Notes: generated from the letters alone by a model not told the origin. Counted from the first letter of the stretch, positions 15,217 to 35,930 are shown. The stretch: DNA of 57,036 nucleotides from Pseudonocardiaceae bacterium (GCA_050701375.1 JBOHFC010000266.1:1-57036), one strand, 5' to 3'. Program-made: numbers and translations.

Positions 15217-15235
15217 ATACTACTGTTTGTAGTAT
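15217..15235. promoter_or_regulatory. Dyad operator ATACTAC-N5-GTAGTAT
   Basis: atactacTGTTTgtagtat is a perfect 7-bp inverted repeat overlapping the candidate ATG (15234) of the MFS gene. It is AT-rich in a GC-rich context. Confidence 0.55.
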
Positions 15236-16436: not shown

Positions 16437-16534
16437 CGAAGGCAACCATCACAACACCGGTCCATCGCGGCCACATTGGTCGGCATGCTTTTCGCGCAGC
16501 GTGAACTCCCACCCGACTGGAGGGGTGATGTGAC

Positions 16535-17758
16535 ATGGCCGCCACACCGTGCGTCGTGGTTGGGGGAGGCCCGGGCGGGATGATGTTGACCTACCTCTTG
16601 GCGCGTAGCGGGGTGAACGTCACGCTGCTGGAGGCGCACCAGGATTTCGACCGTGACTTCCGAGGTGACTCACTTCATCCCTACACACTGGAACTACTCG
16701 ATACACTCGGCCTTGCGGGAGCGTTGCTAGCCCTACCGCACCACCGCGCTCGCTGGTTCCGGTTGCACACCCCGTCCGGCGAGGTGACGCTCGCCGACTA
16801 CGGCAAGCTGGCCACACCCTTCAACTATGTGGCGTTGATGCCGCAAGCTCGGTTTCTGAACTTTCTCGCCGAAGCGGCCGGTGCGCTGCCCGGATGCACA
16901 GTGCGGACCGGTGCCAAGGTCACGAGCCTCTTACCCGACGCCACCGGCACCGTACGCGGGGTAATATATCGGGACTCGGCCGGCGAGCACGAACTGACAG
17001 CCGAACTGGTGGTTGCCGCAGACGGCCGCTTCTCCCGGATACGGCGGTTGAGCGGGTTGCCGGCCCGACCGATGGGCGTTGGCAGTGACGTGCTGTGGTT
17101 CCGGTTGCCCCGCCGCGCCACCGACCCGCCGGAAGCCGATCTCGACCTGTACGTCGCCACTGGTCACTACATCGGCGTGCTTGGCGGCGTGGAGCACTGG
17201 CAGATCGGCTACTCGCTAGCCAAGGGCGGATACCCGGCGGCACGCGATGCTGGCGTTGGCCCGATTCGGGCGTTCGTGGCCGAGCATGTGCCGTGGCTGG
17301 CCGACCGCGCCGAGCTACTGACGGAGTTCAGTCAGACGACGCTGCTGTCCGTGGAGATCTCCTATGTCGACACCTGGTATCGCCCCGGGGTGCTGCTGAT
17401 CGGTGACGCCGCACATGTGATCTCGCCGGTCGGTGGCAACGGGATCCTGATGGCCATCCAGGATGCGGTGGCGGCGGCGAACCGGCTCGTTCCCGTACTG
17501 CGTGCGGGAACGGTGAGTGAGCTGGACCTCGCCGCGGTACAATCGGCGCGAGAATCGGCGATTCAGGCGGTTCAGGCACGGCAGGTGCGGGCCGAGCATC
17601 GTGTCGCCCGGACCCGACGCTCCGGTCCGCCCATATCGTTGCTGCGACTGGTCACCGGCGTGCCGGGGGCGAAGGCACGCGCGGCACGCACCAACGCATA
17701 CGGACCCCAATCGCCCCAACTGGACATCACCCTCCTCACGGCCAGCCCGCCCACCTGA
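16535..17758 (+). CDS. FAD-dependent monooxygenase/oxidoreductase (UbiH/PHBH-like)
   Basis: VVVGGGPGGMMLTYLLARSG.NVTLLE GxGxxG fold. LIGDAAHVISPVGGNGILMAIQDA matches the class A flavoprotein signature. Confidence 0.8.
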   Translation: MAATPCVVVGGGPGGMMLTYLLARSGVNVTLLEAHQDFDRDFRGDSLHPYTLELLDTLGLAGALLALPHHRARWFRLHTPSGEVTLADYGKLATPFNYVALMPQARFLNFLAEAAGALPGCTVRTGAKVTSLLPDATGTVRGVIYRDSAGEHELTAELVVAADGRFSRIRRLSGLPARPMGVGSDVLWFRLPRRATDPPEADLDLYVATGHYIGVLGGVEHWQIGYSLAKGGYPAARDAGVGPIRAFVAEHVPWLADRAELLTEFSQTTLLSVEISYVDTWYRPGVLLIGDAAHVISPVGGNGILMAIQDAVAAANRLVPVLRAGTVSELDLAAVQSARESAIQAVQARQVRAEHRVARTRRSGPPISLLRLVTGVPGAKARAARTNAYGPQSPQLDITLLTASPPT

Positions 17759-17866
17759 GCATTCCTCAAGATGCATCGCGTCCTCGTCAGTCGCTCGAGC
17801 ACGGGTCAACACGGTGGCGTAGCCCATTAGTCGGCTGGACGATAACCGACCTGACGCGTCGCCATC

Positions 17867-17889
17867 TAGTACTACATGATGTAGTACTA
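17867..17889. promoter_or_regulatory. Perfect 23-bp palindrome containing TACTAC-N5-GTAGTA
   Basis: tagtactacatGatgtagtacta has 11-bp arms and ends 4 nt before the ATG (17893) of the GT39 gene. Confidence 0.6.
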
Positions 17890-17892
17890 CGC

Positions 17893-19797
17893 ATGAACGA
17901 AGAAGTGATCCACTCACCAAGGGGCGCCGCGGGTACCGACGATGTCGGTCGCTCGGCACGGGGGGACCGATGGACGATGGTCGCACTGACCACCGCAGCG
18001 GCAGCTCTATACGGCTGGGGCATCGCGCACGGCGCGGTGCACTACTACTACGGCGCCGCGGTGCGCAGTATGAGCGCTAGTTGGCACAACATGGCGTTCG
18101 GCGCCTTCGATCCAGGTGGATTCATCAGCGTCGACAAGCTGCCAGGGGCGTTCTGGATCCAGGCGCTGTTCGTGCGAACGCTCGGTTTCCACCGCTGGGT
18201 GGTGCTGTTGCCACAGGCGCTGGCCGCCACGGTGACTGTGCAGCTACTCTACGCCACCGTGCGCCGCTGGCGCGGACATCGCGCAGCCGTGCTTGCCGCG
18301 CTCACACTGCTGGCCACCCCGGTGACCTACGCTGTCGTTCGAGTGAACCTGCCGGACACGCTGCTGGTGCTGTGCCTGGTCGCAGCCGCGTACACGACCA
18401 CCCGAGCGGTTGCCGACGGTAGTCGGCGCTGGCTGGTCGGCAGTGGTGTGCTGCTCGGACTGGGGTTCCAGGTGAAGATGTTGGAAGCACTGCTGGTGCT
18501 CCCGGCGGTGCTCACCGCCTCTCTTGTCGCGGTCGCAGGGCCGACGCGAACGAAGTGGGCGCGGGCCGCGCTGCTCGTCGTCGTCACCGTCGGAGTGTCG
18601 CTGTCGTGGATGCTCGTCGTGACCGCTGTGCCGGCCAACGACCGGCCGCACGTCGACGGCAGCGCCACCAACTCGGTGTGGGACATGGTGTTCGGCTTCA
18701 ACGGCATCCACCGCGTGACCGGCAGCACGCCGCTGCCGTTCGGCGGTCCGCCCGACCCGCTACGGTTGCTCATCAACCCGGTGGGCGGCCAAATCGGCTG
18801 GTTACTTCCGTTGGCGCTGCTATCACTCGCCTTTGCCTTCCCCGGCTGCCGCGGTGCTGGCCGCGCGGCGATCGCCGGGTGGGTGCTGTGGGGTGGGTGG
18901 CTTGTCACCGCGGTGTTGGTCTTCAGCGCCGCACCAGGAATCCATCCTTATTACACCGTTCTACTCGCCCCCGCGGTGGCCGCCGTGTCGGGCGCCGGAC
19001 TCGATCAGCTGCTTACCGGGGCACGGCGTGGAACGGCGCTGCGGTGGTGCTTGCCGATCGCGGTCACCGGCACGGTCATCTGGGGGCTCGTGCTGGGCGC
19101 CCGCGCACCCGGAGCCATCGACTGGCTGGCGCCGCTGCTGATCATGTTCAGCACGCTGCTGATGCTGTCGCTGGCGCGAGCGACACCCAGGTTTCGAGCA
19201 GTAATGACAACGGTCGCCGTACTGGCGGCACCGGCCGCATGGATCACCCTTACCCCACCGCTCACCGCCAACTCGATGTCCACGGTCAACCCGGCTGCCG
19301 GGCCCGCAGCGCCCGAGGTCGTCTTCGGCTCACCCAACCCAGCCGTCGCACTGACCCTGATGTTTGGCATGCCGCCGGGCGGGCCGCCACCCACTGCATC
19401 GACGCCCCTCCCCGGCACCCGCATCGATCACCTCCTGTTGCACTACCTCCGCAGCCATCAGAACGACGAGCGTTACCTGTTCGCTACCGCAGACGCCAGT
19501 AGCGCCGCACCATACGTCGCAGCGGGTATTCCGGTGCTCCCCATGGGTGGATTCACCGCGTCCACGCCCGCGCCCACCCTGTTCGAGCTGGCGACCCTCG
19601 TCCGCTCTGGAGACCTACGGTTCGTCTGGATGGTTGTTACGCCGGGCGCGCCCGGCCCCCTCGGTGCGCGATCACGATGGGTTCTCAATCACTGCGCCGT
19701 CGTCGCGCCAGGGCGCTATCGCGAATTCGCAGAACCCGCAGCAGCTCGCTGGGCGCCCGCCCTGTACGACTGCCAGGTCACTCCCTCAGGCGAGTGA
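17893..19797 (+). CDS. glycosyltransferase family 39 (ArnT/PMT-like) integral membrane protein
   Basis: 634 aa and many TM segments. The N-terminal region YGWGIAHG.VHYYYGAAVRSMSASWHNM.FGAFDPGGFISVDKLPGAFWIQAL is typical of actinobacterial GT39/DUF2029-like mannosyltransferases. Confidence 0.75.
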   Translation: MNEEVIHSPRGAAGTDDVGRSARGDRWTMVALTTAAAALYGWGIAHGAVHYYYGAAVRSMSASWHNMAFGAFDPGGFISVDKLPGAFWIQALFVRTLGFHRWVVLLPQALAATVTVQLLYATVRRWRGHRAAVLAALTLLATPVTYAVVRVNLPDTLLVLCLVAAAYTTTRAVADGSRRWLVGSGVLLGLGFQVKMLEALLVLPAVLTASLVAVAGPTRTKWARAALLVVVTVGVSLSWMLVVTAVPANDRPHVDGSATNSVWDMVFGFNGIHRVTGSTPLPFGGPPDPLRLLINPVGGQIGWLLPLALLSLAFAFPGCRGAGRAAIAGWVLWGGWLVTAVLVFSAAPGIHPYYTVLLAPAVAAVSGAGLDQLLTGARRGTALRWCLPIAVTGTVIWGLVLGARAPGAIDWLAPLLIMFSTLLMLSLARATPRFRAVMTTVAVLAAPAAWITLTPPLTANSMSTVNPAAGPAAPEVVFGSPNPAVALTLMFGMPPGGPPPTASTPLPGTRIDHLLLHYLRSHQNDERYLFATADASSAAPYVAAGIPVLPMGGFTASTPAPTLFELATLVRSGDLRFVWMVVTPGAPGPLGARSRWVLNHCAVVAPGRYREFAEPAAARWAPALYDCQVTPSGE

Positions 19798-22584: not shown

Positions 22585-22764
22585 AGAGAGCGAGGAATGG
22601 TTGCTGTCGGGCTCGAACGTGACGGATCGGTCTACGGGGGACTCGCCTTCGTGATCGCCTTCCACCCAGATGGAGGAAGTGCCGGTAGGCGCGGAGGACG
22701 GCACTGTCGAGGTTGCGGCGGGAAGTGCGCTGAATAACTAGCCGATCAGGAAGGTTGCGAGGCA

Positions 22765-23487
22765 ATGATATCCAAGATCGCCGCGCCGTCGTCGATGTGT
22801 TGCGCGGAAAGGGCTGGTTTGAGCGATCCTTCGAAGTTTGCTCGACTTGCCACGTCTGGGGACTCTCCTCCCATGAGCTCGATGCTTGACTTCGATGAAG
22901 CCAGGACGGGGGTGCACGTTCGGAAGGATCGGTTGCTCCTACCGGATGAGATGCCGTTCGAGGCATGGCGTGAGCTCGGGTCCCGGGTCGCCTTGATCGC
23001 GAATTGCTCCGCCTGGTGGCTCGGCGACTGGCTCCTCTACGGCGAGCAGAACTACGGTGCTCGTTACGAGCAGGCAGTCGCCGATACCTCGTTGAGCTAT
23101 CAGACCTTACGGAACTACGCCTGGGTGGCGAGGACATTTCCCGTGTCTCGTCGACGGGACACGCTACGCTTCGGTCACCACGTCGAAGTGGCCGCGTTGC
23201 CCGAGGACGAGCAGGACATATGGTTAGCCCGGGCTGAACAGTTGGCTTGGTCTTGCAACAAGCTACGGCGAGCATTGCGGGCGGCCAAGCTGGCCAACCA
23301 GCGAGCATCCATCGACGACGGGACAACCCAGATCAGGGTAGTGAAGATTGACGTGCCGGCCGAGCGACACGACCGTTGGCGGTCCGCTGCCGCGCAGCAA
23401 CATCGTTCTGTGGCAGACTGGGTCATCGAGACACTCGACCATGTAGCAAGCGAGGAATTGAGTACACGAGACAACATGGCGCGATAA
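22765..23487 (+). CDS. LmbU-like cluster-situated transcriptional regulator
   Basis: AWWLGDWLLYGEQNYGARYEQA.....LSYQTLRNYAWVARTFPVSRRR..LRFGHHVEVAAL....Q..WL.RAEQ..WS.NKLR resembles the LmbU/NovE/HmtD regulator family as I remember it. It contains two TTA codons. Confidence 0.65.
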   Translation: MISKIAAPSSMCCAERAGLSDPSKFARLATSGDSPPMSSMLDFDEARTGVHVRKDRLLLPDEMPFEAWRELGSRVALIANCSAWWLGDWLLYGEQNYGARYEQAVADTSLSYQTLRNYAWVARTFPVSRRRDTLRFGHHVEVAALPEDEQDIWLARAEQLAWSCNKLRRALRAAKLANQRASIDDGTTQIRVVKIDVPAERHDRWRSAAAQQHRSVADWVIETLDHVASEELSTRDNMAR

Positions 23488-24081
23488 GCCTTGCCTGACA
23501 ATTGATATCTCAGGCACCGCTGGTGCTGGAACCGACCGGGATCAATGAAGATCTCCCACACAGCTCGTTATTGTCGGTCACGATACCGTCCGCTGGCGTA
23601 GACGGGAAGCCTGCGTGCTGTGACTTGCGGACAAAATGCACGCGCCTCGGCTGGTCGACCTCTCCGGTGCGATCGGCAACGATATGAGTAATTGGCCAAT
23701 CCAGTTGGTGCAGTCTGTCCATAGCATCTCCTCGCTGTATGAACCACCCAAGATCCTTGATTGACAGGCCGAGGATGACAGCGCCGCACTCGGGTCTTTG
23801 CTTCGGCAAACTTCATGTCAGCGTTGACACATTGGTCAGGGTCGATTATGTTCGAGCCTGCTCGATATGTGTTCCTATCGTGTAAGTGAAGAAGGTTGAC
23901 GGTGAACATTCTCATCCGATGACCGAGCTGCTCATCTTATGTGAGTTTACGCTGCCCGTGCAAGCATCGTTGAGCCTCGACAATCAGGTAATAACCGTGA
24001 GTCGACAAAGTTGATCTTGAATCGTCAGGAACTGAAGCGGCCCATTTCTCTGGCATCGCGGCCACTGAGGGTTCGAGGATG

Positions 24082-24119
24082 CGTATGTCGTCGGCGCAGC
24101 TGTGCAGCTGCGACATACG
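24082..24119. promoter_or_regulatory. Imperfect stem-loop / dyad in the AT-rich P450 upstream region
   Basis: cgtatgtcg-tcgg-CGCAGCTG-tg-CAGCTGCG-acatacg has an 8-bp inner stem, a 6-bp outer stem and one bulge. It sits about 105 nt upstream of ATG 24226. Confidence 0.3.
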
Positions 24120-24225
24120 TCATCGACACGCCAAGAAAACATGCTGTAACGGTTCCAGAGCGAAACCAGCTGTGACTTAAGAGGGGTCGCCGACATCCAG
24201 CAAACGATCATTAAGGAGGGGACAT

Positions 24226-25455
24226 ATGCCTGACTCGACCGCCACGACTAGCCGGCCCGGTTTCCACTTCGACCCGAGCGCGGCGGGATTCGATGTCGAC
24301 CCATTTCCGACCTATGCCTACATGCGGGAGCACGAACCGGTTTACTGGTGGCCGCAGCAACAGGGCTGGATCGTGACCCGGTACGACGACGTGGTCATGC
24401 TGCTCAAGGACCCCCGGTTCAGTGTCGAGTTCCGGTATTACGGCCCGGACGAGCTGCCCGATGACCAGCTCAACCCGCACCAGTTGCTGACCAGGTACGG
24501 CATGTTCTGGATGTCCGACGAGAACCACGACCGGGTCCGCGCGACCGCCGCGCCCCTCTTCGGGGCCAGATCCGTCGCGGCATTGCGGCCACAGGTCCAG
24601 AGCGTCGTCGACGACATTCTGCACGATGCGGAGGGACGCGCGGACTTCGATATCGTCATGGATTTCATTCTCGGCTATCCGGCGCAGGCCATCACCACAC
24701 TGCTGGGCATTTCGGGCGAACGGCGTAAGGAGTTCCTGCGGTTCGCCAGCTCGATACTCGACGCGTTCTACCCGCCGATCGACCTGGCCGGCTACGACGA
24801 GAGGATCTCGTACCTGCCGCAGGGCGTGGCGCTGGTCGACGAGCTGATCGAGCAGGACTGCCTGCGCCCGCGCGGCGGCCTGCTGACCAGGCTGATCGAC
24901 GCCGGGCGCGACGATCGCGGGCTCAGCCGCAAGGAACTGCTGGGCATGGTCGCGGTCATCATCTCGGCGGGCAGCGAGCCGACCCGTCACCTGGCGAGCT
25001 TCACCCTGTACAACCTGCTGCGCCATCCCGACCAGCTGCGCATCCTACGTGCCGAGCCGCGCCTGCTGGGCAACGCGGTAAACGAGGTTGGCCGGTACGA
25101 CAGCATGGGCAAGCTGAACTTTCCCCGGTTCCCTCGGCAGGACGTCGAGATCCGCGGAGTGACCGTCCGGGCGGAGCAGCCAGTGTACGGCGTGTTCGCC
25201 AGTGCGCAGCGTGATCCGGCGGTCTTCCCCGACCCGGACCGCTTCGACATCCGTCGCGACCTTCGGCGCAGCCTGCTATGGAGCCAGGGACCGCACAACT
25301 GCCTTGGCCACGCGCTGGCGCAGCTGATCGTCGAGGTGGCGGTAGAGACCTTCCTGCGCCGGTTCCCCCGCGCCCGGCTGCGCGGTGGCCCCGTCTACAC
25401 GCGGGACACCTTTTTCCGCAAGATGATCTCGCTGCCGGTCGACTTGGCGGGATGA
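24226..25455 (+). CDS. cytochrome P450
   Basis: ExxR and Cys pocket WSQGPHNCLGHALA. An AAGGAGGGG RBS lies 5 nt upstream of the ATG. Confidence 0.95.
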   Translation: MPDSTATTSRPGFHFDPSAAGFDVDPFPTYAYMREHEPVYWWPQQQGWIVTRYDDVVMLLKDPRFSVEFRYYGPDELPDDQLNPHQLLTRYGMFWMSDENHDRVRATAAPLFGARSVAALRPQVQSVVDDILHDAEGRADFDIVMDFILGYPAQAITTLLGISGERRKEFLRFASSILDAFYPPIDLAGYDERISYLPQGVALVDELIEQDCLRPRGGLLTRLIDAGRDDRGLSRKELLGMVAVIISAGSEPTRHLASFTLYNLLRHPDQLRILRAEPRLLGNAVNEVGRYDSMGKLNFPRFPRQDVEIRGVTVRAEQPVYGVFASAQRDPAVFPDPDRFDIRRDLRRSLLWSQGPHNCLGHALAQLIVEVAVETFLRRFPRARLRGGPVYTRDTFFRKMISLPVDLAG

Positions 25456-27983
25456 CCGGCATGCCTGAGAACGAGTCCCCGGGTCGAAAGTCGAGCCGCA
25501 AGGCCGTTGTCGTGGGCGCTGGCCCGGTCGGATGCCTCACGGCCCTCGTGCTGAGCAGGCGTAGCTATACCGTCGAGGTGTACGAGAAGCGGCCGCACTT
25601 CCTCCGCCGAGGCATCGTGGAGCAAGGCCGCACTGTCAACCTGTCTCTGTCCCCCAGGGGTCTGCACGCGCTGGCCGCGTACGGTCTGGATGCCGAGTTC
25701 GCTGGGGCCGCCGTCCCGATGGACAGGCGTGCGTTCCACGGCGTCGACGGCCGACCGCTGACAACGAGGTACGGCGCCCCGGACTGGCACACGTACTCGA
25801 TCGGCCGTAACGACCTCAACCTGATGCTCATGCGCGCGGCGGAACGGGTACCTTCGGTCCGGTTCACGTTCGACGCGAAGTGCACGGACGTCGGTTTCAT
25901 GGACCGCACAGCCACATTCGACATCGCCGACCGAGGCCGGAGACGGGTCGGTTACGACCTGCTCGCCGGAGCAGACGGCGCCTATTCGGCGGTGCGCCGG
26001 CGAATGGCCGCCGCCGGGCTGACCACCTTCACGGTACGGGAGCTGGAATCCACCTACCGCGAACTTGTGCTCCGCCCGGCGGCGGACGACGCGGACCTGA
26101 CCCGCTCAGCGATCCATGTCTGGCCACGCGGCAGGTTCTTCATGGTCGCACTGCCCAACCGCGACGGTTCCCTGCGCGCCACACTCGTACTGCCGTCTGA
26201 GGCCCCGGACAGCAATATCCAGCTGCGCCACCGTGATGACCTCGATCGGTTCTTCCAACGGTATTTCCCGGACGCCGCAGGGATCCTGGACAACGTCGGG
26301 GACGGACTGCCCCCGGTCAACCGCATCTCCGTCGTGTCCTGCAGCCAGCTTTCCCATGCGGACTCCGTGCTGCTGCTGGGCGACGCCGCACACACCCTGG
26401 CTCCGTTCCTGGGACAGGGCGTCAACGTCGGGCTGGAGGACTGCCTCTCTCTCGGTGTGCTGCTGGAGAAGTACCGCGACGACCAGCGCCTGGCGATGGC
26501 GGAGTACGAGCGGGAGCGACGCGCCGAGGGCGAGGCGGCAGCCACTCTCTCGCTGTCCAACTACGTAGAACTCAGTGGCACGGCCGGTGAGCATGCCCTG
26601 CCGTCCGATTCCCCGGCCACCGCGGACCACGGCTTGCCCGCGGCAACGTGGATCGAATTCCCCCTCGCCGTGATGGTGAACTTCCTCGGCCTGTCCTACC
26701 GGGAAGTCCTCGACAGGGGCCGCGCTGCGGCGCACCACCCTCCGGTCGAAGGCGGCAGAAAGGTAGGGGCTGTGACCGACGACCGTACCCCCGCCCAAAT
26801 CATGCACTGGCAAGACGACCGGACCGACGCACGCGGGTGGCTGGTCATCGACCGCCTTCTCAACGGTGTCTCCGGCGGCGGGCTGTTCATGCACCCGGGG
26901 GCGACCTACGAGGAGGTCGCGGATCTGGCCACCACTATGTCATTAAAGAACACCATCCAGGAGCCGCAGTTCGGCGGCGGCAAGGGCGGGATCCGGTTCG
27001 ATCCGCACTCACCGGCCGCGGTCGGGGTGCTGCGCCGGTTCATGCTGGCACACCGGGAGGTGATCGAGCACCAGTGGAGCACCGGTGGGGACCTCTACAC
27101 CAGCAACGAGGTGATCGAACGGATCGCCCGCGAGGACCTGGGGCTGCCGTCCGCATTCGTGGCACTCGCCACCATGCTCAGCCGGCGCTATGACATCCCC
27201 TCCCAGGCGGTGACCATGTCCAACCGGATCGCCACGCCGTGGAACGAGTACTTCTCCCTGGGGGAGGCAGCAACCGGGCACTCCGTCGCCGAGTCCGTCC
27301 GGGTGGTAGCGGCGGACCGGCCGCGGGTCGTCGTCCAGGGCTTCGGGACCGTCGGCTCCAGCCTGGCGCACTTCCTCACCGTGTCGGGCATCGGCACTGT
27401 CGCCGGGATCTGTGAGCAGGACGGCTGGCTGTATTGCCCGGACGGCATCGACGTGGCGAAGCTGCTGCGGCGCAGGGCATCAGTCCGACACAAGCAGCCC
27501 GCGTTCGCCCGGCTGCTCGGGACTGACCTGCCCCGGGGTTGGCACTGGACACCTCGCCGCCCAGGACAGACCGATGAGGACATGCTGACCGAGCTTACCG
27601 CGGCGACCCGCGCGGACGTTATCAGTCCTTGCGCAACAAGGTATGCGCTGACCCGTACGGTGCTGGAGGCGTTCGCCGACAGCGGCGGCAGGTACGTCGT
27701 CTGCGGCGCGAACAACGCACTGGCCTCGGCCGCGCTCGCCGAGGAGTTCGGCCGACGTGGTGTGATCGTCGTACCCGACTGGGTCTCCAACGCCGGCACC
27801 GCCATCCTCTTCGCCGAGATCCTCAAGACCCCGGTCTGGCAGGACGGGACCAAGGACCGGATCTTCGCCACGATCACCGAACGCATCACACGGTTTCTCA
27901 GCAACAACGGGCCGGCCGTCGGTTTCGACGTGCCCGCGGCGGCCGGCCGCGGCGAACACACCGGGAGTGGGGTAGGACCTTGA
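25452..27983 (+). CDS. Fusion protein: KMO/VioC-like FAD monooxygenase (N) joined to Glu/Leu/Phe/Val-type amino-acid dehydrogenase (C)
   Basis: ATG 25452 overlaps the P450 stop (ATGA). N-domain: VVVGAGPVGC, DLLAGADGAYSAVR, LLLGDAAHTLAPFLGQGVNVGLED. C-domain: QFGGGKGGIRFD catalytic-Lys loop and VVVQGFGTVGS NAD(P) fold. The frame is continuous. Confidence 0.85.
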   Translation: MTGMPENESPGRKSSRKAVVVGAGPVGCLTALVLSRRSYTVEVYEKRPHFLRRGIVEQGRTVNLSLSPRGLHALAAYGLDAEFAGAAVPMDRRAFHGVDGRPLTTRYGAPDWHTYSIGRNDLNLMLMRAAERVPSVRFTFDAKCTDVGFMDRTATFDIADRGRRRVGYDLLAGADGAYSAVRRRMAAAGLTTFTVRELESTYRELVLRPAADDADLTRSAIHVWPRGRFFMVALPNRDGSLRATLVLPSEAPDSNIQLRHRDDLDRFFQRYFPDAAGILDNVGDGLPPVNRISVVSCSQLSHADSVLLLGDAAHTLAPFLGQGVNVGLEDCLSLGVLLEKYRDDQRLAMAEYERERRAEGEAAATLSLSNYVELSGTAGEHALPSDSPATADHGLPAATWIEFPLAVMVNFLGLSYREVLDRGRAAAHHPPVEGGRKVGAVTDDRTPAQIMHWQDDRTDARGWLVIDRLLNGVSGGGLFMHPGATYEEVADLATTMSLKNTIQEPQFGGGKGGIRFDPHSPAAVGVLRRFMLAHREVIEHQWSTGGDLYTSNEVIERIAREDLGLPSAFVALATMLSRRYDIPSQAVTMSNRIATPWNEYFSLGEAATGHSVAESVRVVAADRPRVVVQGFGTVGSSLAHFLTVSGIGTVAGICEQDGWLYCPDGIDVAKLLRRRASVRHKQPAFARLLGTDLPRGWHWTPRRPGQTDEDMLTELTAATRADVISPCATRYALTRTVLEAFADSGGRYVVCGANNALASAALAEEFGRRGVIVVPDWVSNAGTAILFAEILKTPVWQDGTKDRIFATITERITRFLSNNGPAVGFDVPAAAGRGEHTGSGVGP

Positions 27984-28840
27984 TCCGCAAGAACAGGACG
28001 CTGGAACTGATCAGGTGCGGCGAGCCCGCGGTCGGTACCTGGCTGCAGCTGCACAGCGTGCACGCCGCGCGGCTGCTGGTGGCACAGGGCTTTCACCGGT
28101 GGATGCTGGTTGACTTCGAGCACACACCGGTCGACCACACCACCGCCACGCACATCTTTGCCACCATCTCCGACCTCAGCCGCGGCGAGATCACCCCGCT
28201 GGCGCGGGTGGCGGCCGGTTCGATCGAGCACATCAAGCAGGCGCTGGACGCGGGTAGCCAGGGCGTTATCGTGCCCATGGTCAACACCGCGCGGGAGGCG
28301 GAGGCCGCCGTCCGGTACGCCCGGTTCCCACCTATCGGGGTGCGCGGAGCCGGCGGACTGGCGCCGCACCTGGGATTCGGCGTCAACCGGCCGACCTACC
28401 TGGCCGAGGTGAACCGGGAGACCCTGGTCGGTGTGCAGATCGAGGCGGTGGAAGGGTTGGCCAACGTCCGCGAGATCGCCGCGGTCGACGGCGTCGACCT
28501 GGTCTTCGTGGGGCCGTTCGATCTGCACATGGCACTCGAGCTGCCATCAAGGGTATGGAGCACCGATCCGGACTTCCTGCGGGCGGTGCAGGAGATCACC
28601 CTCGCGGCCAAGGAAGCCGGCAAACCGCTGGGCACCCTGTGCGCCGAGGCGAAGGGCGCGCGGGAACGGCTCAGCGAGGGATTCACCTTCGTCGGGATGG
28701 CCAGCGACGCGCACGTGATGCTGACCTATGCCGGCCGCCAGTACGGCGAGTTGTACGGGATCAATGAGCCGGAGGAGACCTGGTGCAACGTGTCCAACCT
28801 GGACCGTCTGTCGGACTCACTCCGCGGTCTGCCGCGCTAG
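27980..28840 (+). CDS. HpcH/HpaI-family class II (divalent-metal) 2-oxo-acid aldolase
   Basis: G.W......HAARLLVAQGF.WMLVDFEH.P.D......I......G.ITPLARV......IKQALDAGSQGVIVPMVNT..EA.AAVRYARFPP.G.RG. The start is called at TTG 27980 (TTGA overlap with the upstream stop), so the exact start is uncertain. Confidence 0.85.
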   Translation: MIRKNRTLELIRCGEPAVGTWLQLHSVHAARLLVAQGFHRWMLVDFEHTPVDHTTATHIFATISDLSRGEITPLARVAAGSIEHIKQALDAGSQGVIVPMVNTAREAEAAVRYARFPPIGVRGAGGLAPHLGFGVNRPTYLAEVNRETLVGVQIEAVEGLANVREIAAVDGVDLVFVGPFDLHMALELPSRVWSTDPDFLRAVQEITLAAKEAGKPLGTLCAEAKGARERLSEGFTFVGMASDAHVMLTYAGRQYGELYGINEPEETWCNVSNLDRLSDSLRGLPR

Positions 28841-30424
<1,584 letters not shown>

Positions 30425-30483
30425 GCCGGCGGTGCCGGGCTCGTGCTTGGTCCGGCACCCAGACCACGCAGGGAAGGGGTCGC

Positions 30484-31080
30484 ATGACGACGAACCCGCG
30501 CTCCGGACAGTCCGTCACCAGGTGCAGTCCATCGCAGATGCGGGCCATGATGGCGGGCTTCCCGACCGGCGTCAGCATCGTGACGGCGATGGAGCCCGCC
30601 GGACCGCCCAGAGGCATGACGTGCTCCTCGCTGTGCAGCGTCACGCTGACGCCGCCCACGCTCCTGATCTGTCTACGGGGGCAGAGCCCCACCCTGTATG
30701 CCATCCGGACCAGCGGGACGTTCGCCGTGAACCTCCTTCACGCCGAGGCCCGCGCGACAGCCCAGCTGTTCGCCTCCAGTGCGGTAGACAGGTTCGACCG
30801 GGTGCTGTGGCATGCGGACCCGGACAGTGCGGGCCCGCACCTCCCGCAGGACGCGCACCTCGTCGGCGACTGCCGTGTCATCGACGTCCAGTTCGTCGGT
30901 GACCACGCCGTCGTGTTCGGCGAGGTCGTGCGGGTCATCCAAGGACAGACACAACCGCCGCTGCTCTACGGACTTCGGCACTACGCGACCTGGCACGCAT
31001 CCGTCATGCACGACGACGTCGACTCGAGCGAGCGAGCCGCATCCACCTGCCCTGCCGCAGCACTCCGCCTGGAACGTTGA
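30484..31080 (+). CDS. NAD(P)H:flavin reductase (halogenase partner, RebF/PrnF-like)
   Basis: MAGFPTGVSIVTA....GPPRGMTCSSLCSVTL.PPTLLICL is a flavin_reduct domain signature. Confidence 0.9.
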   Translation: MTTNPRSGQSVTRCSPSQMRAMMAGFPTGVSIVTAMEPAGPPRGMTCSSLCSVTLTPPTLLICLRGQSPTLYAIRTSGTFAVNLLHAEARATAQLFASSAVDRFDRVLWHADPDSAGPHLPQDAHLVGDCRVIDVQFVGDHAVVFGEVVRVIQGQTQPPLLYGLRHYATWHASVMHDDVDSSERAASTCPAAALRLER

Positions 31081-31090
31081 GGAGCAGACG

Positions 31091-32275
31091 GTGTCATTAC
31101 CCCAGCTCGAAGTAAACGCGCCCGGTTTCCTGGACGACCAGGACCAGCTGCTCGACGCGGCACGCGCACGTCATCCGTTCGCCGTCAGCGAGCGGGGTGT
31201 GGAGATCCTCGGCTACCCCGAGTGCCAGGCCCTGTTGCGCGACCGGCGGGCACAGAAGGACCACATGGCCCTCGTCGAGCGGCTCGGCATCACCGATCCG
31301 GAGGTCATCGCGTACAAGCGCAGGATACTGGTAGGGCAACGGCTGGACGCCAACCGCGACCGGATGCGGTCGGTACTCTCACGTGCGATGTCGGCCAGGC
31401 GGATGGACCGACTGCGGGCCGAGACCCGGTCGGCGGTCCACCGGATACTGGATGGAATCCCGGCGCGGCGCCCGGTCGACTTCGTCACCGAGGTCGCCTC
31501 CCTGGTGCCGTCCACGTTCTTCTGCCGGTGGGTTGGCCTACCGGAGGAGGACGCCCGCTTCGTCAGCGCCCTGTCGGACGTCATGCTCAAGATCTTCTGG
31601 ATGGACCCGGCCTACACCGAGCGCATCGAGGCCGCCTACAGCCGGCTCTTCGCCTACATGGACCGCCAGCTGGACACCCTCCGGTCCGACCGGGAGGAGG
31701 GCTTCCTCGCCCACCTGGCACGGGAGCAGCGGGACGGCAACGTCAACCCGACGGAGGTGCGCGACTGGGTGATCTTCGCTCTCGAGGGGAGCACGGACAA
31801 CACCGTCCACCAAATCGCCCTGCTGCTGGGCCGCCTGCTGGAGACACCCAGCCTGTGGGACCAGGTCCGGCGGGACCCCGCCCTGGTCGACATTGTCACC
31901 GACGAGAGCATGCGGCTGGACGCGAGAACCCGGGCCATCCATCGGCTGGCGGCCGACGACATCGAGGTACCGGGCGGCGTGATCAGGACCGGAACGGACA
32001 TGTTCTTCTGGGTGCGGGCGGCCCACCTCGATCCCCGGGCGTTCCCGCAGCCGCACAGGTTCGACATCCACCGGCAGCGGACGCCCGGGCACCTGATGTT
32101 CGGCCGCGGTCCGTACTCCTGCTTGGGGCGGTGGATGGCCCGGATGGAGGTGCAGGAGACCCTACGCGCCGTGCTCGAGCGTTTCCCGGGCGTCCGGCTG
32201 GCCGGTGTTCCCCGACGGTCGGTCGACATGTTCTCGCTCGCCGCCGAGTACCTTCCGGTCGTGCTCGAGCCGTGA
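31091..32275 (+). CDS. cytochrome P450
   Basis: GTG 31091 with a GAGGAG RBS, 10 nt after the reductase stop. Cys pocket FGRGPYSCLGRWMA. The 487-aa ORF from 30812 is an upstream extension overlapping the reductase gene. Confidence 0.9.
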   Translation: MSLPQLEVNAPGFLDDQDQLLDAARARHPFAVSERGVEILGYPECQALLRDRRAQKDHMALVERLGITDPEVIAYKRRILVGQRLDANRDRMRSVLSRAMSARRMDRLRAETRSAVHRILDGIPARRPVDFVTEVASLVPSTFFCRWVGLPEEDARFVSALSDVMLKIFWMDPAYTERIEAAYSRLFAYMDRQLDTLRSDREEGFLAHLAREQRDGNVNPTEVRDWVIFALEGSTDNTVHQIALLLGRLLETPSLWDQVRRDPALVDIVTDESMRLDARTRAIHRLAADDIEVPGGVIRTGTDMFFWVRAAHLDPRAFPQPHRFDIHRQRTPGHLMFGRGPYSCLGRWMARMEVQETLRAVLERFPGVRLAGVPRRSVDMFSLAAEYLPVVLEP

Positions 32276-32417
32276 TCCATTCCGGTGCACGGCACATCCC
32301 TCCATCAGGAGCTCTTTCCGGGCGGTCGGTTCGCCAATCAGATCGACCGTTGGACGGCGTGCACGAGAACGAGAACGCTGCGTTTGAGCCAGCGACAGGA
32401 TCTGGAGGCGGTCACGC

Positions 32418-32891
32418 ATGAACATCCTCATTCACCTACTCCCCGGCGTCGCCGTGCTTGCCTGCTCGGCCGTGTACGGCGCCGACCTGTTCGCGGCGAT
32501 CGTCCTACGTTCAGCTTTGTCCGAAGTAGACGACCAGACGCTCACGCACACCATGGGCCACGTGCACAGGTACGGTGACCGGCGGATGCCCGTCCCGTTC
32601 GTCCTCAGTGTCGCCGCCAGCCTGCTGAGCATGGTGGCAGCGGCACTGGCCGGACGTACGGCGGTCGCGGTGGCCAGTGCAGTCGCAGTCGCCGCTCTCC
32701 TCTGCTGGATCACGGTCTACCTTCGAGTCAGCGGGCCGATCAACCGTAAGCTCACCGCTGCGGCCGTCAACGGAACCCCTCTCCCCGAGGCACGCGCTAT
32801 GCAACACCGCTGGGACAGCGTGGTTCCGTTCCGCCTCATTCTGCAGGGTATCGCCGTCGCCGCGTTGTGCACGGCGCTCGCATTGGCCTGA
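32418..32891 (+). CDS. DUF1772-like (anthrone-oxygenase-like) small membrane protein
   Basis: 157 aa, 4 TM segments, and pattern ..AVYGADLFAA.V...AL......H.YGDRRMP....PIN..L...............RW...V..R. A GGAGG RBS is present. Confidence 0.55.
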   Translation: MNILIHLLPGVAVLACSAVYGADLFAAIVLRSALSEVDDQTLTHTMGHVHRYGDRRMPVPFVLSVAASLLSMVAAALAGRTAVAVASAVAVAALLCWITVYLRVSGPINRKLTAAAVNGTPLPEARAMQHRWDSVVPFRLILQGIAVAALCTALALA

Positions 32892-32931
32892 CAGCCCTAC
32901 GAACTCTGTGTCTTGGTAGCAGGATTGGTGG

Positions 32932-34461
32932 TCATGACGAGGCCGCTCCCTCCTCGTTATGCAACGGCCGTGCCGGGTCGAGGGTATGCGTCACGGCCAG
33001 CGCATTGGCCGCGCCGGCACCGGCCCGCCCATCCGCACTGCCTGCCCAGGCGTCACCGTCCACCTTGGTCCGCGAGGCACCACCGGCGGGCTTGGGCAGC
33101 TCGCCGAACTTGGGCCAGTACTGCCGGTACTTCCGGACCGCCTCCTTCCCTACCCGGTCCGCGAGCAGCTTGGCCACCTCGCTGGCCGAGCACTGTCCGC
33201 TTCGGACCAGACGAATAGCGGCGCGGGCAATTCTGGGTGGTGTGAGTACCCGGTAGGGCGAAAGTCGGTGTGACATCACCCGATCGATCAACAGGATCTT
33301 GGCCTTCGGATCGTCCCCGATTATCCGCAGCATCTCGCGCTCCAGCGGGCCGAGCGCACCGGCCTGGGCAAAGTCGTAGGCCAGCCAGTACATTGGGGTG
33401 GCATCTGCATCTCGCCACTTCCACCACCGCTTCGTCACGCGGTCGACTGCGGCTTGGTCCCGGGCCGGCACCAAAGTGATGTCGGTGGCGAACCGCTTGG
33501 CTTGGCGCAGCGCATCCGAGATGCCCTGCGCGATGGTGGGGTCCTTGAAATGCCCGGCGTCCCCGATCAGCGCCCAGCCTGGGCCGGCCGACTCGCGGAA
33601 ATAGCCAGGTAGATAGGCGGTGCCGACCGGCCTGGTCACCCGCCGCGCCGCGCTCAGCACCGGCTGCAACTGCGGGCACTCCGCGACTAGCGCATCATAG
33701 CTTTCCGGAAGGTTCCGTTTGAACTCGGCGAATTCCTCCATCCCGGGGGCCACCACCACGGTGAAGCGGTCATTGTCCGAACGGAAGGCGATAGTCAGCT
33801 TCGCGCCGTCCCGGTACTGATGGCCGGGCGGCAGCCCGTCGTCCTGCACGTCGACGAAGTCTGCCCAGAACGCGAAACGCTGGTTGGCCGTCGTGTTGTA
33901 GGTACGCGAACCGGCTAGTTCGGCAACCCGCGAGTTGCGGCCGTCCGCCCCAACCACTAACGCCGCGCGCATTTCATACTGCTTTTCCTTGCTGCGTACC
34001 ACCACGCCCTCGACACGGCCACCAGCGTCTCGGATCAGCTCCACCAAGGACGTGTGCTGGCGGACGTCGACCCCTTCCGCGATGGCCCGATCTAGCAGGA
34101 AACCGTCTAGCAGCTTGCGGCTGACACTGATGCCGCCCGGCGGCTGGCCGACATCCGGATACACCGGGGCGTCGAGATTCACATTGTCGTAGTCGACCCG
34201 CACCGCATCGACGAACGGCGCACCGGTGCTCCTGAGCTGGTTGAGCAGACCGAGTTCAGCCAGGACGCTCACCCCAGACACCTGCAACAGATGTGTGGAC
34301 AACGTATCGCTGGGAAAACCGGCGCGATCAACCAGTACTACCCGGCGGCCCGCCCTGGCCAGGTGAATCGCAAGCGACGCTCCGGAGATCCGGGCGCCGA
34401 CCACAACCACATCAGCGCTGTCGGGAAAAGGCTCAGGGTAGGGCTGCTCAGGAAAAGACAT
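32932..34461 (-). CDS. FAD-dependent oxidoreductase (geranylgeranyl-reductase / PHBH-like fold)
   Basis: DVVVVGARISGASLAIHLARAGRRVVLVDR dinucleotide fold and LIGDAGHFKDPTIAQGISDA. No WxWxIP halogenase motif. The start is ATG 34461, overlapping the UbiA stop by 14 nt. Confidence 0.8.
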   Translation of the reverse strand: MSFPEQPYPEPFPDSADVVVVGARISGASLAIHLARAGRRVVLVDRAGFPSDTLSTHLLQVSGVSVLAELGLLNQLRSTGAPFVDAVRVDYDNVNLDAPVYPDVGQPPGGISVSRKLLDGFLLDRAIAEGVDVRQHTSLVELIRDAGGRVEGVVVRSKEKQYEMRAALVVGADGRNSRVAELAGSRTYNTTANQRFAFWADFVDVQDDGLPPGHQYRDGAKLTIAFRSDNDRFTVVVAPGMEEFAEFKRNLPESYDALVAECPQLQPVLSAARRVTRPVGTAYLPGYFRESAGPGWALIGDAGHFKDPTIAQGISDALRQAKRFATDITLVPARDQAAVDRVTKRWWKWRDADATPMYWLAYDFAQAGALGPLEREMLRIIGDDPKAKILLIDRVMSHRLSPYRVLTPPRIARAAIRLVRSGQCSASEVAKLLADRVGKEAVRKYRQYWPKFGELPKPAGGASRTKVDGDAWAGSADGRAGAGAANALAVTHTLDPARPLHNEEGAASS

Positions 34462-35392
34462 TGACGACCACCAACCCGAGGACGGCGACTCGGAGGGCCA
34501 AGAATCCGTAGTTGCGACGATTGCGCCAATAACCATGCAACCCGTTACGCAGCACGTAGAACTGCATCAGCCAGGCCGGCAGCAGGCCCAGCGGCGTCCA
34601 GGGGCTAAGCACAGCGAACGCGGTGCCGGCGATGGCCAGCGCCCATGAGGTAACGAACATGACAACGACGAAGGCCAGATTGGTACGCTGCGAGGTACGG
34701 GCAGCCACGGTGCGCCGGCCCACGCTGTGATCGTCTGCGGCGTCGGCCGTATTGGAACAGATCAGCACTTGCACCAACCACATACCGAAGAGCACACCCT
34801 GGATCAGAGCGGCTGCGCTGACCTCGCCGACCGCGGCGCCGAAAGGCAGCCATATACTGGCCGCCAGGGTGATCCCGGTGAGCGCCTCACCGCCACCGAA
34901 AATGCGATAGCTGAAGTTGATCCCAGCGGAGTACTGCGCGCCGAAGATCGTCACCAACAGCCCGCCGACCAGTGCCCACCAGGGACGGAAACCAGCGACC
35001 GCCCAGAACACCATCACGCAGGCCGAAGCCACAACCACCGAACTGTAGGCGAAAACCCTCGCGGTGGCGACGGTGACCGTGCCCTGCACCAGTGGTTTAA
35101 CCTGGCTGCGTTTGCGTTCCGGCGCGTAATTGCGGATATCACTGCCATCCAGGAAACCGGTGATGTCGTCGAAGGCATGGCTTGCGCACACTGTAAAGCC
35201 GATGGCGATCAGGAAGAGCAGGCACAGCATGGTCGAACGAATATGCGGCACGCCTTGGCCGACCAGCAGCGACCAGGCTACAATCGGCCCTGTCCAGATG
35301 TCGTACAGTTTGAGTTTGCCCAGCTGCGCCAGTGCGGTCACAGTCTCGATCAAACGGCCTGACGGCGCCTGCACTGCATGCGTTTCGGACAT
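34448..35392 (-). CDS. UbiA-family integral membrane aromatic prenyl/alkyl transferase
   Basis: About 8-9 TM segments and an Asp-rich motif SHAFDDITGFLDGSDIRN (NDxxDxxxD-like). The start is set at ATG 35392. The upstream 88 codons of the ORF are non-coding-like. Confidence 0.75.
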   Translation of the reverse strand: MSETHAVQAPSGRLIETVTALAQLGKLKLYDIWTGPIVAWSLLVGQGVPHIRSTMLCLLFLIAIGFTVCASHAFDDITGFLDGSDIRNYAPERKRSQVKPLVQGTVTVATARVFAYSSVVVASACVMVFWAVAGFRPWWALVGGLLVTIFGAQYSAGINFSYRIFGGGEALTGITLAASIWLPFGAAVGEVSAAALIQGVLFGMWLVQVLICSNTADAADDHSVGRRTVAARTSQRTNLAFVVVMFVTSWALAIAGTAFAVLSPWTPLGLLPAWLMQFYVLRNGLHGYWRNRRNYGFLALRVAVLGLVVVNVFS

Positions 35393-35453
35393 CACCACCG
35401 CCTTTTCCGGAATCGAGCAACGTCCGGGTCGGCAATTAATTTCGTTCTGGGGA

Positions 35454-35930
35454 ATGGAGTTCACCGTGGACGAGCGAACCAGCGGGATTGTGCGCGGAGT
35501 TGTGTCGGGAGCCGCGGCCACCGCCGTCTTCACCTGGACGAGCGCACGGTTGAAGAAACACACTGCCACGCACGGTGCGGTGCAGCCGATCCAGGTCTCC
35601 TCCGCGCTCACCGGCGGCGCGCCGCAGGCCGATCCCGGGCGACGCCCGCTCACCAACGCCGTACTGCACTGGGGCTACGGCGGCTGGGGCGGTGTGCTCC
35701 GCGTGCTGTTGATGCGCAGGGGGCTCACCGGCTGGCGAGCCGACCTCACCCAACTCGCCGTGTTCTGGCTGCCGTGGCGGCTGCTGGCGCGGGCGCACCC
35801 GTCCGCCGAACGGCCATCCCGCAGAGAAGAAAACGTCGCACTGTACACGGATCTCGGCAAGCATGTGGTATACGTGCTGACCGATCGCTTGGTACACGCC
35901 CTGCTGGCCAGACGAGCCGGGCGACGCTGA
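35454..35930 (+). CDS. hypothetical small protein, divergent from the UbiA gene
   Basis: 158 codons from ATG 35454 with very high GC3. This is preferred over the overlapping minus-strand ORF 35436-35951. No family was recognised. Confidence 0.5.
   Translation: MEFTVDERTSGIVRGVVSGAAATAVFTWTSARLKKHTATHGAVQPIQVSSALTGGAPQADPGRRPLTNAVLHWGYGGWGGVLRVLLMRRGLTGWRADLTQLAVFWLPWRLLARAHPSAERPSRREENVALYTDLGKHVVYVLTDRLVHALLARRAGRR

Follow-up and report, generated by a model that had tools for sequence, protein, structure and literature searches.

The 57,036-nucleotide stretch of Pseudonocardiaceae bacterium DNA analyzed here (GCA_050701375.1, JBOHFC010000266.1:1-57036; hereafter the window) encodes, in one reading frame, a flavin monooxygenase (FMO) of the kynurenine 3-monooxygenase (KMO) type joined to an amino acid dehydrogenase of the Glu/Leu/Phe/Val (ELFV) family. 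The open frame spans 25278-27983 on the plus strand, and its probable start, ATG 25452, gives a protein of 843 amino acids. We confirm that this one polypeptide comprises two complete enzymes with catalytic residues intact in both. The open reading frame (ORF) is very probably a true and recent fusion of adjacent genes within a cassette that also encodes a tryptophan halogenase. The best explanation overall, to which we give an even chance, is a recent fusion within a chloro-tryptophan cassette of an enzyme pair that would deaminate its substrate and then oxygenate it.

Two complete enzymes in one reading frame

Pfam places FAD_binding_3 (PF01494) at residues 18 to 364 (E 7.5e-23; 81.7 bits against a cut-off of 22), ELFV_dehydrog_N at residues 460 to 560 (E 8e-12; 45.4 bits against 25.3), and ELFV_dehydrog at residues 606 to 783 (E 2.5e-18; 67.1 bits against 23.4). 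Searches of PDB sequences matched residues 14 to 423 of the N-terminal half to human KMO (5x68; E 5e-64) and Pseudomonas fluorescens KMO (E 4e-52) and the C-terminal half to hexameric glutamate dehydrogenases (GDHs) at about 1e-15 to 1e-17. An AlphaFold2 model of the whole protein gave high confidence for both halves, with pLDDT values below 50 at residues 377 to 412 and at junction residues 425 to 445. This model was built on alignment A4, which took the place of alignment A2, discarded because distant KMOs had been combined in it with ELFV proteins and were wrongly aligned. When the model was compared with KMO structures by Foldseek, about 435 columns aligned with TM scores of 0.79 to 0.85 (target normalized), so that the likeness to KMO spans the whole length of the FMO, its C-terminal helical part included.

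An earlier note, made from the sequence of this DNA, had described a single ORF joining two complete enzymes with no stop or frame change. The open frame, the Pfam domains, and the occurrence of the same frame in a metagenome-assembled genome (MAG) bear this out, and the five motifs that the note quoted (VVVGAGPVGC, DLLAGADGAYSAVR, LLLGDAAHTLAPFLGQGVNVGLED, QFGGGKGGIRFD, and VVVQGFGTVGS) are all present in the translation. The N-terminal half carries the class A FMO fingerprint as VVVGAGPVGC (GxGxxG), GADGAYS (DG), and GDAAH...GQGVNVGLED (GD). Alignment of the C-terminal half with Thermotoga maritima GDH and family members equates K499 with GDH K113 and K511 with the catalytic K125 (GGGKGG); the Asp of TGGDL, equivalent to GDH D165, is kept, and the Rossmann motif GFGTVG is kept across the subfamily. 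The half thus has both Pfam domains, the catalytic Lys, the second Lys, the Asp, and the GxGxxG motif of the ELFV superfamily. A loss of catalytic residues on proper alignment, which the note had named as a possible refutation, was therefore seen in neither half.

A small deletion created a genuine fusion

KMO homology ends at residue 423, and the ancestral ELFV start, GTG 26772-26774, corresponds to residue 441. What lies between the two is thus just the FMO's own C-terminal tail of about 17 amino acids, with no inserted linker, and the linker of about 45 amino acids proposed earlier does not hold. In three unfused loci, namely, a JGI metagenome contig (L013), Saccharothrix obliqua, and an Egibacteraceae MAG (L014), the FMO stop TGA overlaps the ELFV GTG as GTGA, and the sequence GTGACC at this site is kept in L013 and L014. 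Just upstream of the GTGA site, the window and a Pseudonocardiaceae MAG that carries the same fusion have 11 nucleotides fewer than L013 and L014; compared with S. obliqua, the net difference at the same site is +7 nucleotides. Each difference moves the FMO frame by one base, and translation then continues through GTG ACC. The fusion was thus produced by an 11-bp deletion 22 nucleotides upstream of the ancestral stop/start overlap, and since the three unfused loci read at the site agree in frame, the fused state is derived and recent.

A scan of a genome collection found one related locus, the Pseudonocardiaceae MAG contig JBOHFJ010000038.1 (L001), and a protein search found a Logan assembly contig (L002) with the same fused gene. 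The two contigs are identical across the gene and are counted together as one independent sequence. Relative to the window, this sequence has 181 substitutions (about 99 synonymous and about 82 nonsynonymous) and no indels over 840 codons. The dN/dS ratio of the whole gene is 0.27; the FMO half alone gives 0.25, and the ELFV half gives 0.29. Because the same continuous frame is present in an independent MAG, an assembly frameshift in the window, for which the earlier note had advised a check, is excluded; the ratios and the lack of indels indicate purifying selection on both halves ever since the lineages separated.

These data bear directly on the alternative that the fusion is an assembly artifact, or else a decaying gene of which only an internally initiated dehydrogenase still works. 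The junction does differ from that of unfused relatives by a single small indel, the ancestral GTG remains together with an ATG ten codons later and a purine-rich stretch upstream, and a ferredoxin gene in the same operon has been lost to a second deletion (see below). However, the same 11-bp state recurs in an independently assembled genome with 181 differences in the gene, further indels and stops are lacking, selection has acted on both halves, and the upstream half keeps all of its FAD/NADPH motifs. We give this alternative hardly any credence. In all relatives found other than the MAG/Logan copy, the FMO and the ELFV dehydrogenase are separate genes, and they are called as separate genes in three Streptomyces loci. 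As an event, the fusion is mechanistically trivial, and it is limited to a single lineage.

The domain architecture is exceptionally rare

Word-indexed searches of 5.8 billion proteins were made with full-length, C-terminal, and junction-spanning queries. The full-length query returned a sole match with both domain sets, the MAG/Logan protein (P0001). All 249 matches to the C-terminal query were ELFV-only, and each of the 86 matches to the junction query (residues 300 to 600) was either ELFV-only or FAD_binding_3-only. The copy count is a lower bound, since the word-indexed search missed P0001, which is 91% identical, with the C-terminal and junction queries; with the full-length query it also missed stand-alone FMOs that are 48 to 84% identical. 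An exhaustive HMMER search with the C-terminal domain against 1.84 billion representatives gave 1,642 matches, and FAD_binding_3 was absent from the 20 long proteins that were domain scanned among the best 150 of them. Those 20 proteins carry instead TyrRS-type tRNA ligase, VOC/glyoxalase, AMP-binding, or CO-dehydrogenase-flavoprotein domains. The literature searched gave no natural example of a class A FMO joined to an amino acid dehydrogenase. The combination of FAD_binding_3 with ELFV domains is clearly exceptional and very rare, and the earlier remark that no characterized enzyme is known to have this architecture stands, on the strength of Pfam domain scans and literature searches.

A conserved halogenase cassette surrounds the fused gene

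In the window, the fused gene belongs to a block of codirectional, tightly packed genes (Table 1). Its ATG overlaps the TGA of the upstream P450 gene as ATGA, and its stop, TGA 27981-27983, overlaps the TTG start of an HpcH/HpaI aldolase gene as TTGA. The same cassette, in the order FMO, ELFV dehydrogenase, HpcH aldolase, tryptophan 5/6-halogenase, and flavin reductase, with a P450 gene in front in some cases, occurs in Pseudonocardiaceae, in the Egibacteraceae MAG, and in several Streptomyces. The order FMO-ELFV-HpcH is constant in eight of eight cassette contexts, and the halogenase and flavin reductase then follow in all of them but L014, whose contig ends after the aldolase. Specifically, window positions 25452-31080 correspond to the same five genes in the same order and on the same strand in L013 (contig Ga0604444_0000329; FMO 84% and ELFV 87% identical), S. 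obliqua (JAHXGQ010000008.1; L003/L004), Streptomyces sp. JV176 (L005), Streptomyces tubercidicus (L006), and Streptomyces sp. AS58 (L011). These homologous cassettes differ from that of the window in that the FMO and the ELFV dehydrogenase are encoded by two genes, as they also are in L014.

Identities to the stand-alone cassette homologs are 48 to 84% for the FMO, 59 to 87% for the ELFV dehydrogenase (73% to the S. obliqua protein), 65 to 86% for the aldolase, and 68 to 79% for the halogenase. The aldolase is the best-conserved cassette protein, at 86% identity to S. obliqua and 65 to 68% to Streptomyces. It scores 108 bits against a PF03328 cut-off of 25 and matches HpaI structures at E 1e-36, and an alignment to 4b5s shows that the equivalents of H45, R70, E149, and D175 are kept. 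It reaches no NCBIfam equivalog (the HpaI model gives 149 against a cut-off of 369). The PDB matches of the halogenase are the Trp 5-halogenase 8fov (E 1e-252), the 6-halogenase SttH (E 1e-250), and PyrH (E 3e-215), and the enzyme most likely acts on free tryptophan at position 5 or 6. The Streptomyces cassettes lack the P450 and, unlike that of the window, lie within stretches of glycosyltransferase, deoxy-aminosugar, and methyltransferase genes. At each of the three loci, the genes around the cassette encode two glycosyltransferases, two DegT-type aminotransferases, and one methyltransferase, with a second FAD enzyme, an FAD_binding_4 oxidase, and a NovG-like regulator.

Table 1. Positions of the fused gene, its parts, and the neighboring genes in the window
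Feature	Position	Strand	Basis or remark
240-aa protein, no Pfam match	22765..23487	+	84% identical to product of L013 3101-3823, same relative position
Cytochrome P450a	24226..25455	+	Pfam p450; closest structure EpoK (epothilone epoxidase), E 5e-81
FMO::ELFV fused ORF	25452..27983	+	Pfam, PDB search, AlphaFold2 model; same frame in L001/L002
KMO-type class A FMO domain, residues 1-440	25452..26771	+	FAD_binding_3; KMO structures align to residues 14-423
Fusion junction	26722..26774	+	Native FMO tail, deletion point 26749/26750, ancestral ELFV GTG 26772-26774; alignments A1, A3
ELFV amino acid dehydrogenase domain, residues 441-843	26772..27983	+	Two Pfam domains; Lys/Lys/Asp kept
HpcH/HpaI class II metal-dependent pyruvate aldolase	27980..28840	+	HpcH_HpaI (PF03328), E 4e-31
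Flavin-dependent Trp halogenase (PyrH/SttH clade)	28883..30424	+	Trp_halogenase, E 3e-138
Flavin reductase fused to ferredoxin remnant	30484..31080	+	Flavin_Reduct, E 9e-35
Cytochrome P450b	about 31091..32275 (start approximate)	+	Pfam p450
157-aa all-helical protein, probably membrane	32418..32891	+	Last gene of the block common to the MAG

The monooxygenase half is a KMO relative with a remodeled pocket

The earlier note had called the N-terminal half KMO-like and collinear with VioC/VioD. The fold and the carboxylate triad of KMO (EC 1.14.13.9) are indeed present: compared with the P. fluorescens (5NAK/6FOX) and human (5X68) enzymes, with which it shares 30 to 33% identity, the FMO has the same fold, the same GxGxxG, DG, and GD motifs, and the same carboxylate anchor, KMO R84/Y98/N369 being R93/Y107/N370 in the window. 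The sequence of the P. fluorescens enzyme was taken from the PDB alignment, in which chain numbering equals native numbering. What did not stand is the identification with canonical KMO. In P. fluorescens numbering, the window protein has the pocket changes L213I, M222F, I224V, F238V, H320L, M373L, Y404A, and T408N; it is thus unlike every canonical KMO examined at L213, M222, I224, F238, M373, and Y404, where it has I, F, V, V, L, and A. The same pattern is found in 13 of 13 stand-alone cassette-type FMOs (44 to 84% identical), with A or P at 404, and in the MAG fusion, whereas the canonical KMOs in the same alignment (11 of 11; 30 to 36% identical to the window) keep L-M-I-F-(H/F/Y)-M-Y. An intermediate pattern is seen in a single protein of 39% identity. 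VioC/VioD membership was rejected on score, the VioC model NF053548 giving 149.8 bits against a cut-off of 760.

Unlike KMO, moreover, the window FMO is linked to a tryptophan halogenase and an aldolase, is fused to an ELFV dehydrogenase, and lacks kynurenine pathway neighbors. Neither tryptophan 2,3-dioxygenase or indoleamine 2,3-dioxygenase (TDO/IDO) nor kynurenine formamidase nor kynureninase was found among the approximately 50 window ORFs scanned with Pfam or in the loci L002, L003, L005, L006, L011, L013, and L014. Taken together, these features suggest a KMO-derived subfamily that binds an aryl amino or oxo acid in a differently shaped aromatic site, and the remodeled site would fit a chloro-indole better than kynurenine.

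The pocket and the neighbors also decide how much weight can be given to the kynurenine scheme put forward earlier. Under that scheme, the FMO would be a true KMO acting on (halo)kynurenine, the ELFV domain would deaminate 3-hydroxykynurenine, spontaneous cyclization would give a xanthurenate-type hydroxyquinoline-2-carboxylate, and a UbiA-type enzyme would prenylate the product. The closest solved structures are KMOs, the carboxylate triad is kept, a KMO and a deaminating enzyme yield xanthurenate in quinolobactin biosynthesis, a UbiA gene (34448-35656) lies nearby in the window, 6.5 kb downstream, and a terpene synthase gene adjoins the L013 cassette. However, the scheme needs TDO and kynurenine formamidase, neither of which was found in the window or at the related cassette loci, its substrate pocket is not that of canonical KMOs, and it leaves the invariant aldolase, which the earlier note overlooked, without a role. 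The proposed link to UbiA is likewise poorly supported, since the gene lies outside the blocks syntenic with L001 and L013, the cassette relatives examined have no UbiA gene, and the protein matches only UbiA/MenA models, and those weakly (E 1e-6 to 1e-7). We regard the kynurenine scheme as very improbable.

The dehydrogenase half belongs to a distinct ELFV subfamily

The C-terminal half shares its Pfam domains, the GFGTVG motif, and the GGGKGG Lys with known ELFV dehydrogenases (T. maritima GDH 1B26, Phe/Leu dehydrogenases, and the Trp dehydrogenase ScyB). Unlike these, it belongs to a separate subfamily with the signature GVSGGGLFMH around G475/F479, relatives of which are fused to TyrRS-type or VOC domains. 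K89, the Lys that contacts the Glu side chain in Clostridium symbiosum GDH, is replaced by Gly475 and R93 by Phe479, and the whole subfamily is alike in this. The best NCBIfam GDH models give 56 bits against cut-offs of 620 to 750, and the protein is not assigned to the GDHs. The ScyB model (NF035922) was not among the best 25 NCBIfam families for the window protein, and in the relative P0185 it gave 26.8 bits, where 600 is the cut-off; a role like that of a Trp dehydrogenase is nonetheless the one favored here. As for NAD versus NADP, the acidic residue that follows the second Rossmann beta strand is not diagnostic in GDH-like enzymes.

ELFV relatives with 36 to 45% identity are repeatedly fused to a TyrRS-type tRNA ligase (NF006330; 273 to 298 bits against a cut-off of 220), present as a complete domain at the ELFV C terminus in P0177, P0185, P0187, P0191, P0192, P0200, P0202, and P0204. 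In P0190, P0201, P0203, P0205, and P0207, the domain at the ELFV C terminus is a VOC (glyoxalase/HPPD-like) domain. Other relatives adjoin VOC dioxygenases or a protein with the Pfam domain Beta_methylindole_red_C. Because of these fused and adjacent proteins, aromatic amino acids or arylpyruvates are pointed to as substrates, and the clade would consist of aromatic amino acid dehydrogenases that supply arylpyruvates. Fusions of ELFV domains to aminoacyl-tRNA synthetases look unusual in their own right.

A proposed deaminate-then-oxygenate route

An aromatic amino acid substrate is suggested for the pair because the tryptophan halogenase and its reductase are always attached to it, apart from L014, where the contig ends earlier, and the FMO-ELFV pair probably acts on chloro-tryptophan or chloro-indolepyruvate. 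In the route that we favor, the halogenase and flavin reductase would make 5- or 6-chloro-L-tryptophan, and the C-terminal ELFV domain would oxidatively deaminate it to chloro-indole-3-pyruvate, yielding NAD(P)H. The KMO-like domain would hold chloro-indolepyruvate by its Arg/Tyr/Asn carboxylate triad and oxygenate the indole with that NAD(P)H, for a net conversion of chloro-tryptophan and O2 to an oxygenated chloro-indolepyruvate and NH3. Such an order agrees with the tryptophan alternative offered in the earlier note, in which the product would be a hydroxylated indolepyruvate. Formation of indolepyruvate by an ELFV enzyme has a precedent in ScyB of scytonemin biosynthesis, and deamination ahead of oxygenation has one in the thiostrepton enzymes TsrA and TsrE (see below).

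That the NAD(P)H made by the ELFV domain is used by the FMO is a reasonable inference from the domain make-up, and it gains some weight because the separate genes are translationally coupled (GTGA). ELFV equilibria favor amination, and an FMO that consumes oxo acid and NAD(P)H alike would draw the unfavorable deamination forward; such a pull would supply a functional reason for the translational coupling and for the tolerated fusion.

The HpcH aldolase would then, with less certainty, act on the oxygenated 2-oxo acid. Enzymes of the HpcH/HpaI type act on 4-hydroxy-2-oxo acids, and because indole C3 is C4 of the oxo acid, hydroxylation of indolepyruvate at C3 would give the substrate motif of these enzymes. 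We therefore favor oxygenation at C3, which would give a 3-hydroxyindolenine, formally a 4-hydroxy-2-oxo acid. A retro-aldol cleavage, which we put forward tentatively as a possible outcome, would release pyruvate and a chlorinated 3-oxoindole unit of the indoxyl or isatin type, to be elaborated by P450s in Pseudonocardiaceae or by glycosyltransferases in Streptomyces. The scheme gives every conserved enzyme a role, accounts for the absence of TDO, and would provide an OH- or NH-bearing aglycone for the Streptomyces glycosyltransferases. Stated in full, the proposal is that the cassette encodes a route, independent of tryptophanase and TDO, that removes the tryptophan side chain as pyruvate; as a whole it is rather unlikely. 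In such a route, a redox-self-sufficient "deaminating monooxygenase" may convert chloro-tryptophan and O2 to C3-oxygenated indolepyruvate with only catalytic NAD(P)+, and the class II aldolase may then yield pyruvate and a chlorinated indoxyl- or isatin-type block for P450-tailored or glycosylated products.

Several points weigh against the deaminate-then-oxygenate proposal. The regiochemistry of KMO would lead one to expect indole C7, and not C3, as the oxygenation site; the HpcH aldolases are reversible, and C-C bond formation is possible instead of cleavage; and both the reaction order and the oxygenation site are inferred beyond what the sequence gives. The arrangement of the two domains in the AlphaFold model is not confident (pTM 0.53). 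Hexameric GDHs are nearer to the ELFV domain than the known Phe, Leu, or Trp dehydrogenases are, and the pocket positions compared above are those that we take, from PfKMO-kynurenine structures, to be the relevant ones. Finally, no paper on the cassette was found in the literature searched on halogenase, KMO, aldolase, dehydrogenase, and indolepyruvate themes.

The first two of these points define a different outcome, in which the FMO would hydroxylate the benzene ring of chloro-tryptophan or chloro-indolepyruvate at C7, the equivalent of kynurenine C3, and the HpcH enzyme would catalyze an aldol addition with indolepyruvate as donor or acceptor; the ELFV domain may run both ways, with deamination first and reamination later. 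This would yield a chlorinated and hydroxylated tryptophan analog with an extended side chain. The side chain topology of tryptophan is the same as that of kynurenine, and with the carboxylate triad kept the same pose would present C7; all catalytic residues of the reversible class II aldolase are kept; the thermodynamics of ELFV enzymes favor reductive amination; and beta-methyltryptophan biosynthesis, in which tryptophan is deaminated, modified as the oxo acid, and reaminated, is a precedent. Yet the cassette has no conserved enzyme that would supply an aldehyde, the Streptomyces versions have glycosyltransferases and no nonribosomal peptide synthetase within 10 kb to use the amino acid, and with eight pocket positions remodeled the KMO pose need not hold. 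We consider this outcome unlikely.

A second alternative shares its first steps with the favored route. In the biosynthesis of the thiostrepton quinaldate, the aminotransferase TsrA and the flavoprotein TsrE deaminate 2-methyltryptophan and then oxygenate the indolepyruvate. By the same deaminase-then-flavoprotein logic, indolepyruvate could be oxygenated at C2=C3, after which the pyrrole would open and the aniline nitrogen would condense with the 2-oxo group to give a chlorinated quinoline-2-carboxylate with no passage through kynurenine. Such a ring expansion needs no TDO, matching its absence. The aldolase would be unexplained unless it intercepts a ring-opened 4-hydroxy-2-oxo acid, however, and the cassette lacks conserved quinoline-handling enzymes; we consider the ring expansion improbable. 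The tsr genes are listed in PMC5682303.

Comparison with known systems

The pairing of a flavoprotein oxygenase with an enzyme that converts an alpha-amino to an oxo group is shared with quinolobactin biosynthesis, where the KMO QbsG and the aminotransferase QbsB lead to xanthurenate, and with thiostrepton biosynthesis (TsrA and TsrE). Unlike the window, both of these routes use pyridoxal phosphate-dependent aminotransferases, have no aldolase, and employ separate proteins, and the quinolobactin route requires TDO and the formamidase, neither of which was found here. The engineered monooxygenase-dehydrogenase fusions described in biocatalysis reviews likewise tether an NAD(P)H-producing dehydrogenase to an NAD(P)H-consuming flavoprotein monooxygenase. 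Such constructs are artificial and as a rule renew the cofactor at the expense of a sacrificial substrate, whereas the present one is natural and both of its domains would work on one pathway intermediate.

Two published gene clusters were considered and set aside. A candidate cluster for akashin, a chlorinated indigo glycoside, has been proposed in Streptomyces sp. F001 (PMC9946207); the text and supplements of that paper show no ELFV or HpcH gene in it, and no F001 protein was among the ELFV homologs. A chlorinated carbazole cluster (PMC10100901) uses an aminotransferase and lacks an aldolase.

Neighboring genes and the wider window

Synteny with the MAG contig L001 (94% nucleotide identity) is limited to window positions 24192-32898, and downstream of this shared block L001 carries a helix-turn-helix regulator and an integrase. 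Synteny with L013 covers window positions 22727-30995, plus a relocated P450b homolog. The identity of P450a to its cassette counterpart is 74% in S. obliqua and 91% in L013.

The flavin reductase gene has undergone a second deletion fusion, found only in the window. Relative to L001 7356-7470, a 113-nucleotide gap at 30990-31080 removes the end and stop of the reductase gene and about 34 ferredoxin codons, the Cys motif included, so that the reductase ORF runs into the C-terminal remnant of the ferredoxin. The ferredoxin is intact in L002 and L013. With this gene destroyed in the window, P450b is left there without a dedicated ferredoxin. P450b itself is present in L001 and L002, a 62%-identical homolog in L013 lies elsewhere, with a ferredoxin, and S. 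obliqua has no P450b. The 157-amino-acid protein that closes the block is 74% identical to an S. obliqua product (L003 14406-14879); it gives a subthreshold match to Anthrone_oxy (DUF1772; E 0.008), and a single-sequence AlphaFold2 model is all helical with low confidence. It and the 240-amino-acid protein upstream are a pair of conserved flanking proteins with no assigned function.

The minus-strand FAD enzyme and UbiA genes at 32932-35656, and everything beyond them, are not in the shared blocks. Here a geranylgeranyl-reductase-family FAD enzyme (534 amino acids) overlaps a divergent UbiA-type prenyltransferase (402 amino acids), and this pair, just outside the cassette, is not shared with the MAG. 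The terpene synthase gene of L013 (11712-12881), the nearest unfused relative, adjoins its cassette on the equivalent side, and the cassette may have a terpenoid connection in some strains.

Farther downstream, positions 35948-50244 hold a separate-looking gene set of lipid/polyketide type: two phosphoenolpyruvate-utilizing enzymes weakly like the prodigiosin ligases PigC/RedH, two stand-alone ketosynthases, an acyltransferase, a ketoreductase, a MaoC dehydratase, two NAD_binding_4 reductases, and a gene like those for phosphopantetheinyl transferases. Upstream, positions 13264-19797 (plus strand) encode a flavin amine oxidase, a major facilitator superfamily transporter, a second FAD_binding_3 monooxygenase, and a PMT_2-type glycosyltransferase, and positions 6857-13491 (minus strand) encode tetrapyrrole enzymes (a HemL-like class III aminotransferase, coproporphyrinogen oxidase, uroporphyrinogen decarboxylase, 5-aminolevulinate dehydratase, and glutamyl-tRNA reductase). 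Two DDE_5 transposase genes, at 4780-6090 and 50876-51943 and both on the minus strand, bracket the central 45 kb, and the MAG copy of the cassette adjoins a phage-type integrase (L001 13565-14290). It is possible that the cassette is mobile.

Significance

Both domain families are already well known. The literature searched gives no account of these genes as one cassette, of a KMO-derived subfamily with this remodeled pocket, or of the GVSGGGLFMH subfamily of ELFV dehydrogenases. The fusion is Rosetta stone evidence that a KMO-derived FMO and an unusual aromatic amino acid dehydrogenase cooperate. It also draws attention to a conserved and apparently unstudied five-gene cassette for halogenated tryptophan that occurs in several actinomycete genera and, in Streptomyces, within glycoside clusters. 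If the proposal is true, a dehydrogenase followed by a KMO-like oxygenase and then a class II aldolase would constitute a new logic for processing tryptophan, and KMO-type enzymes would gain a new substrate class. The fused protein would then be a natural closed-loop, cofactor-neutral dehydrogenase-monooxygenase pair, a design that biocatalysis builds by hand, and the cassette offers a handle for finding chlorinated products.

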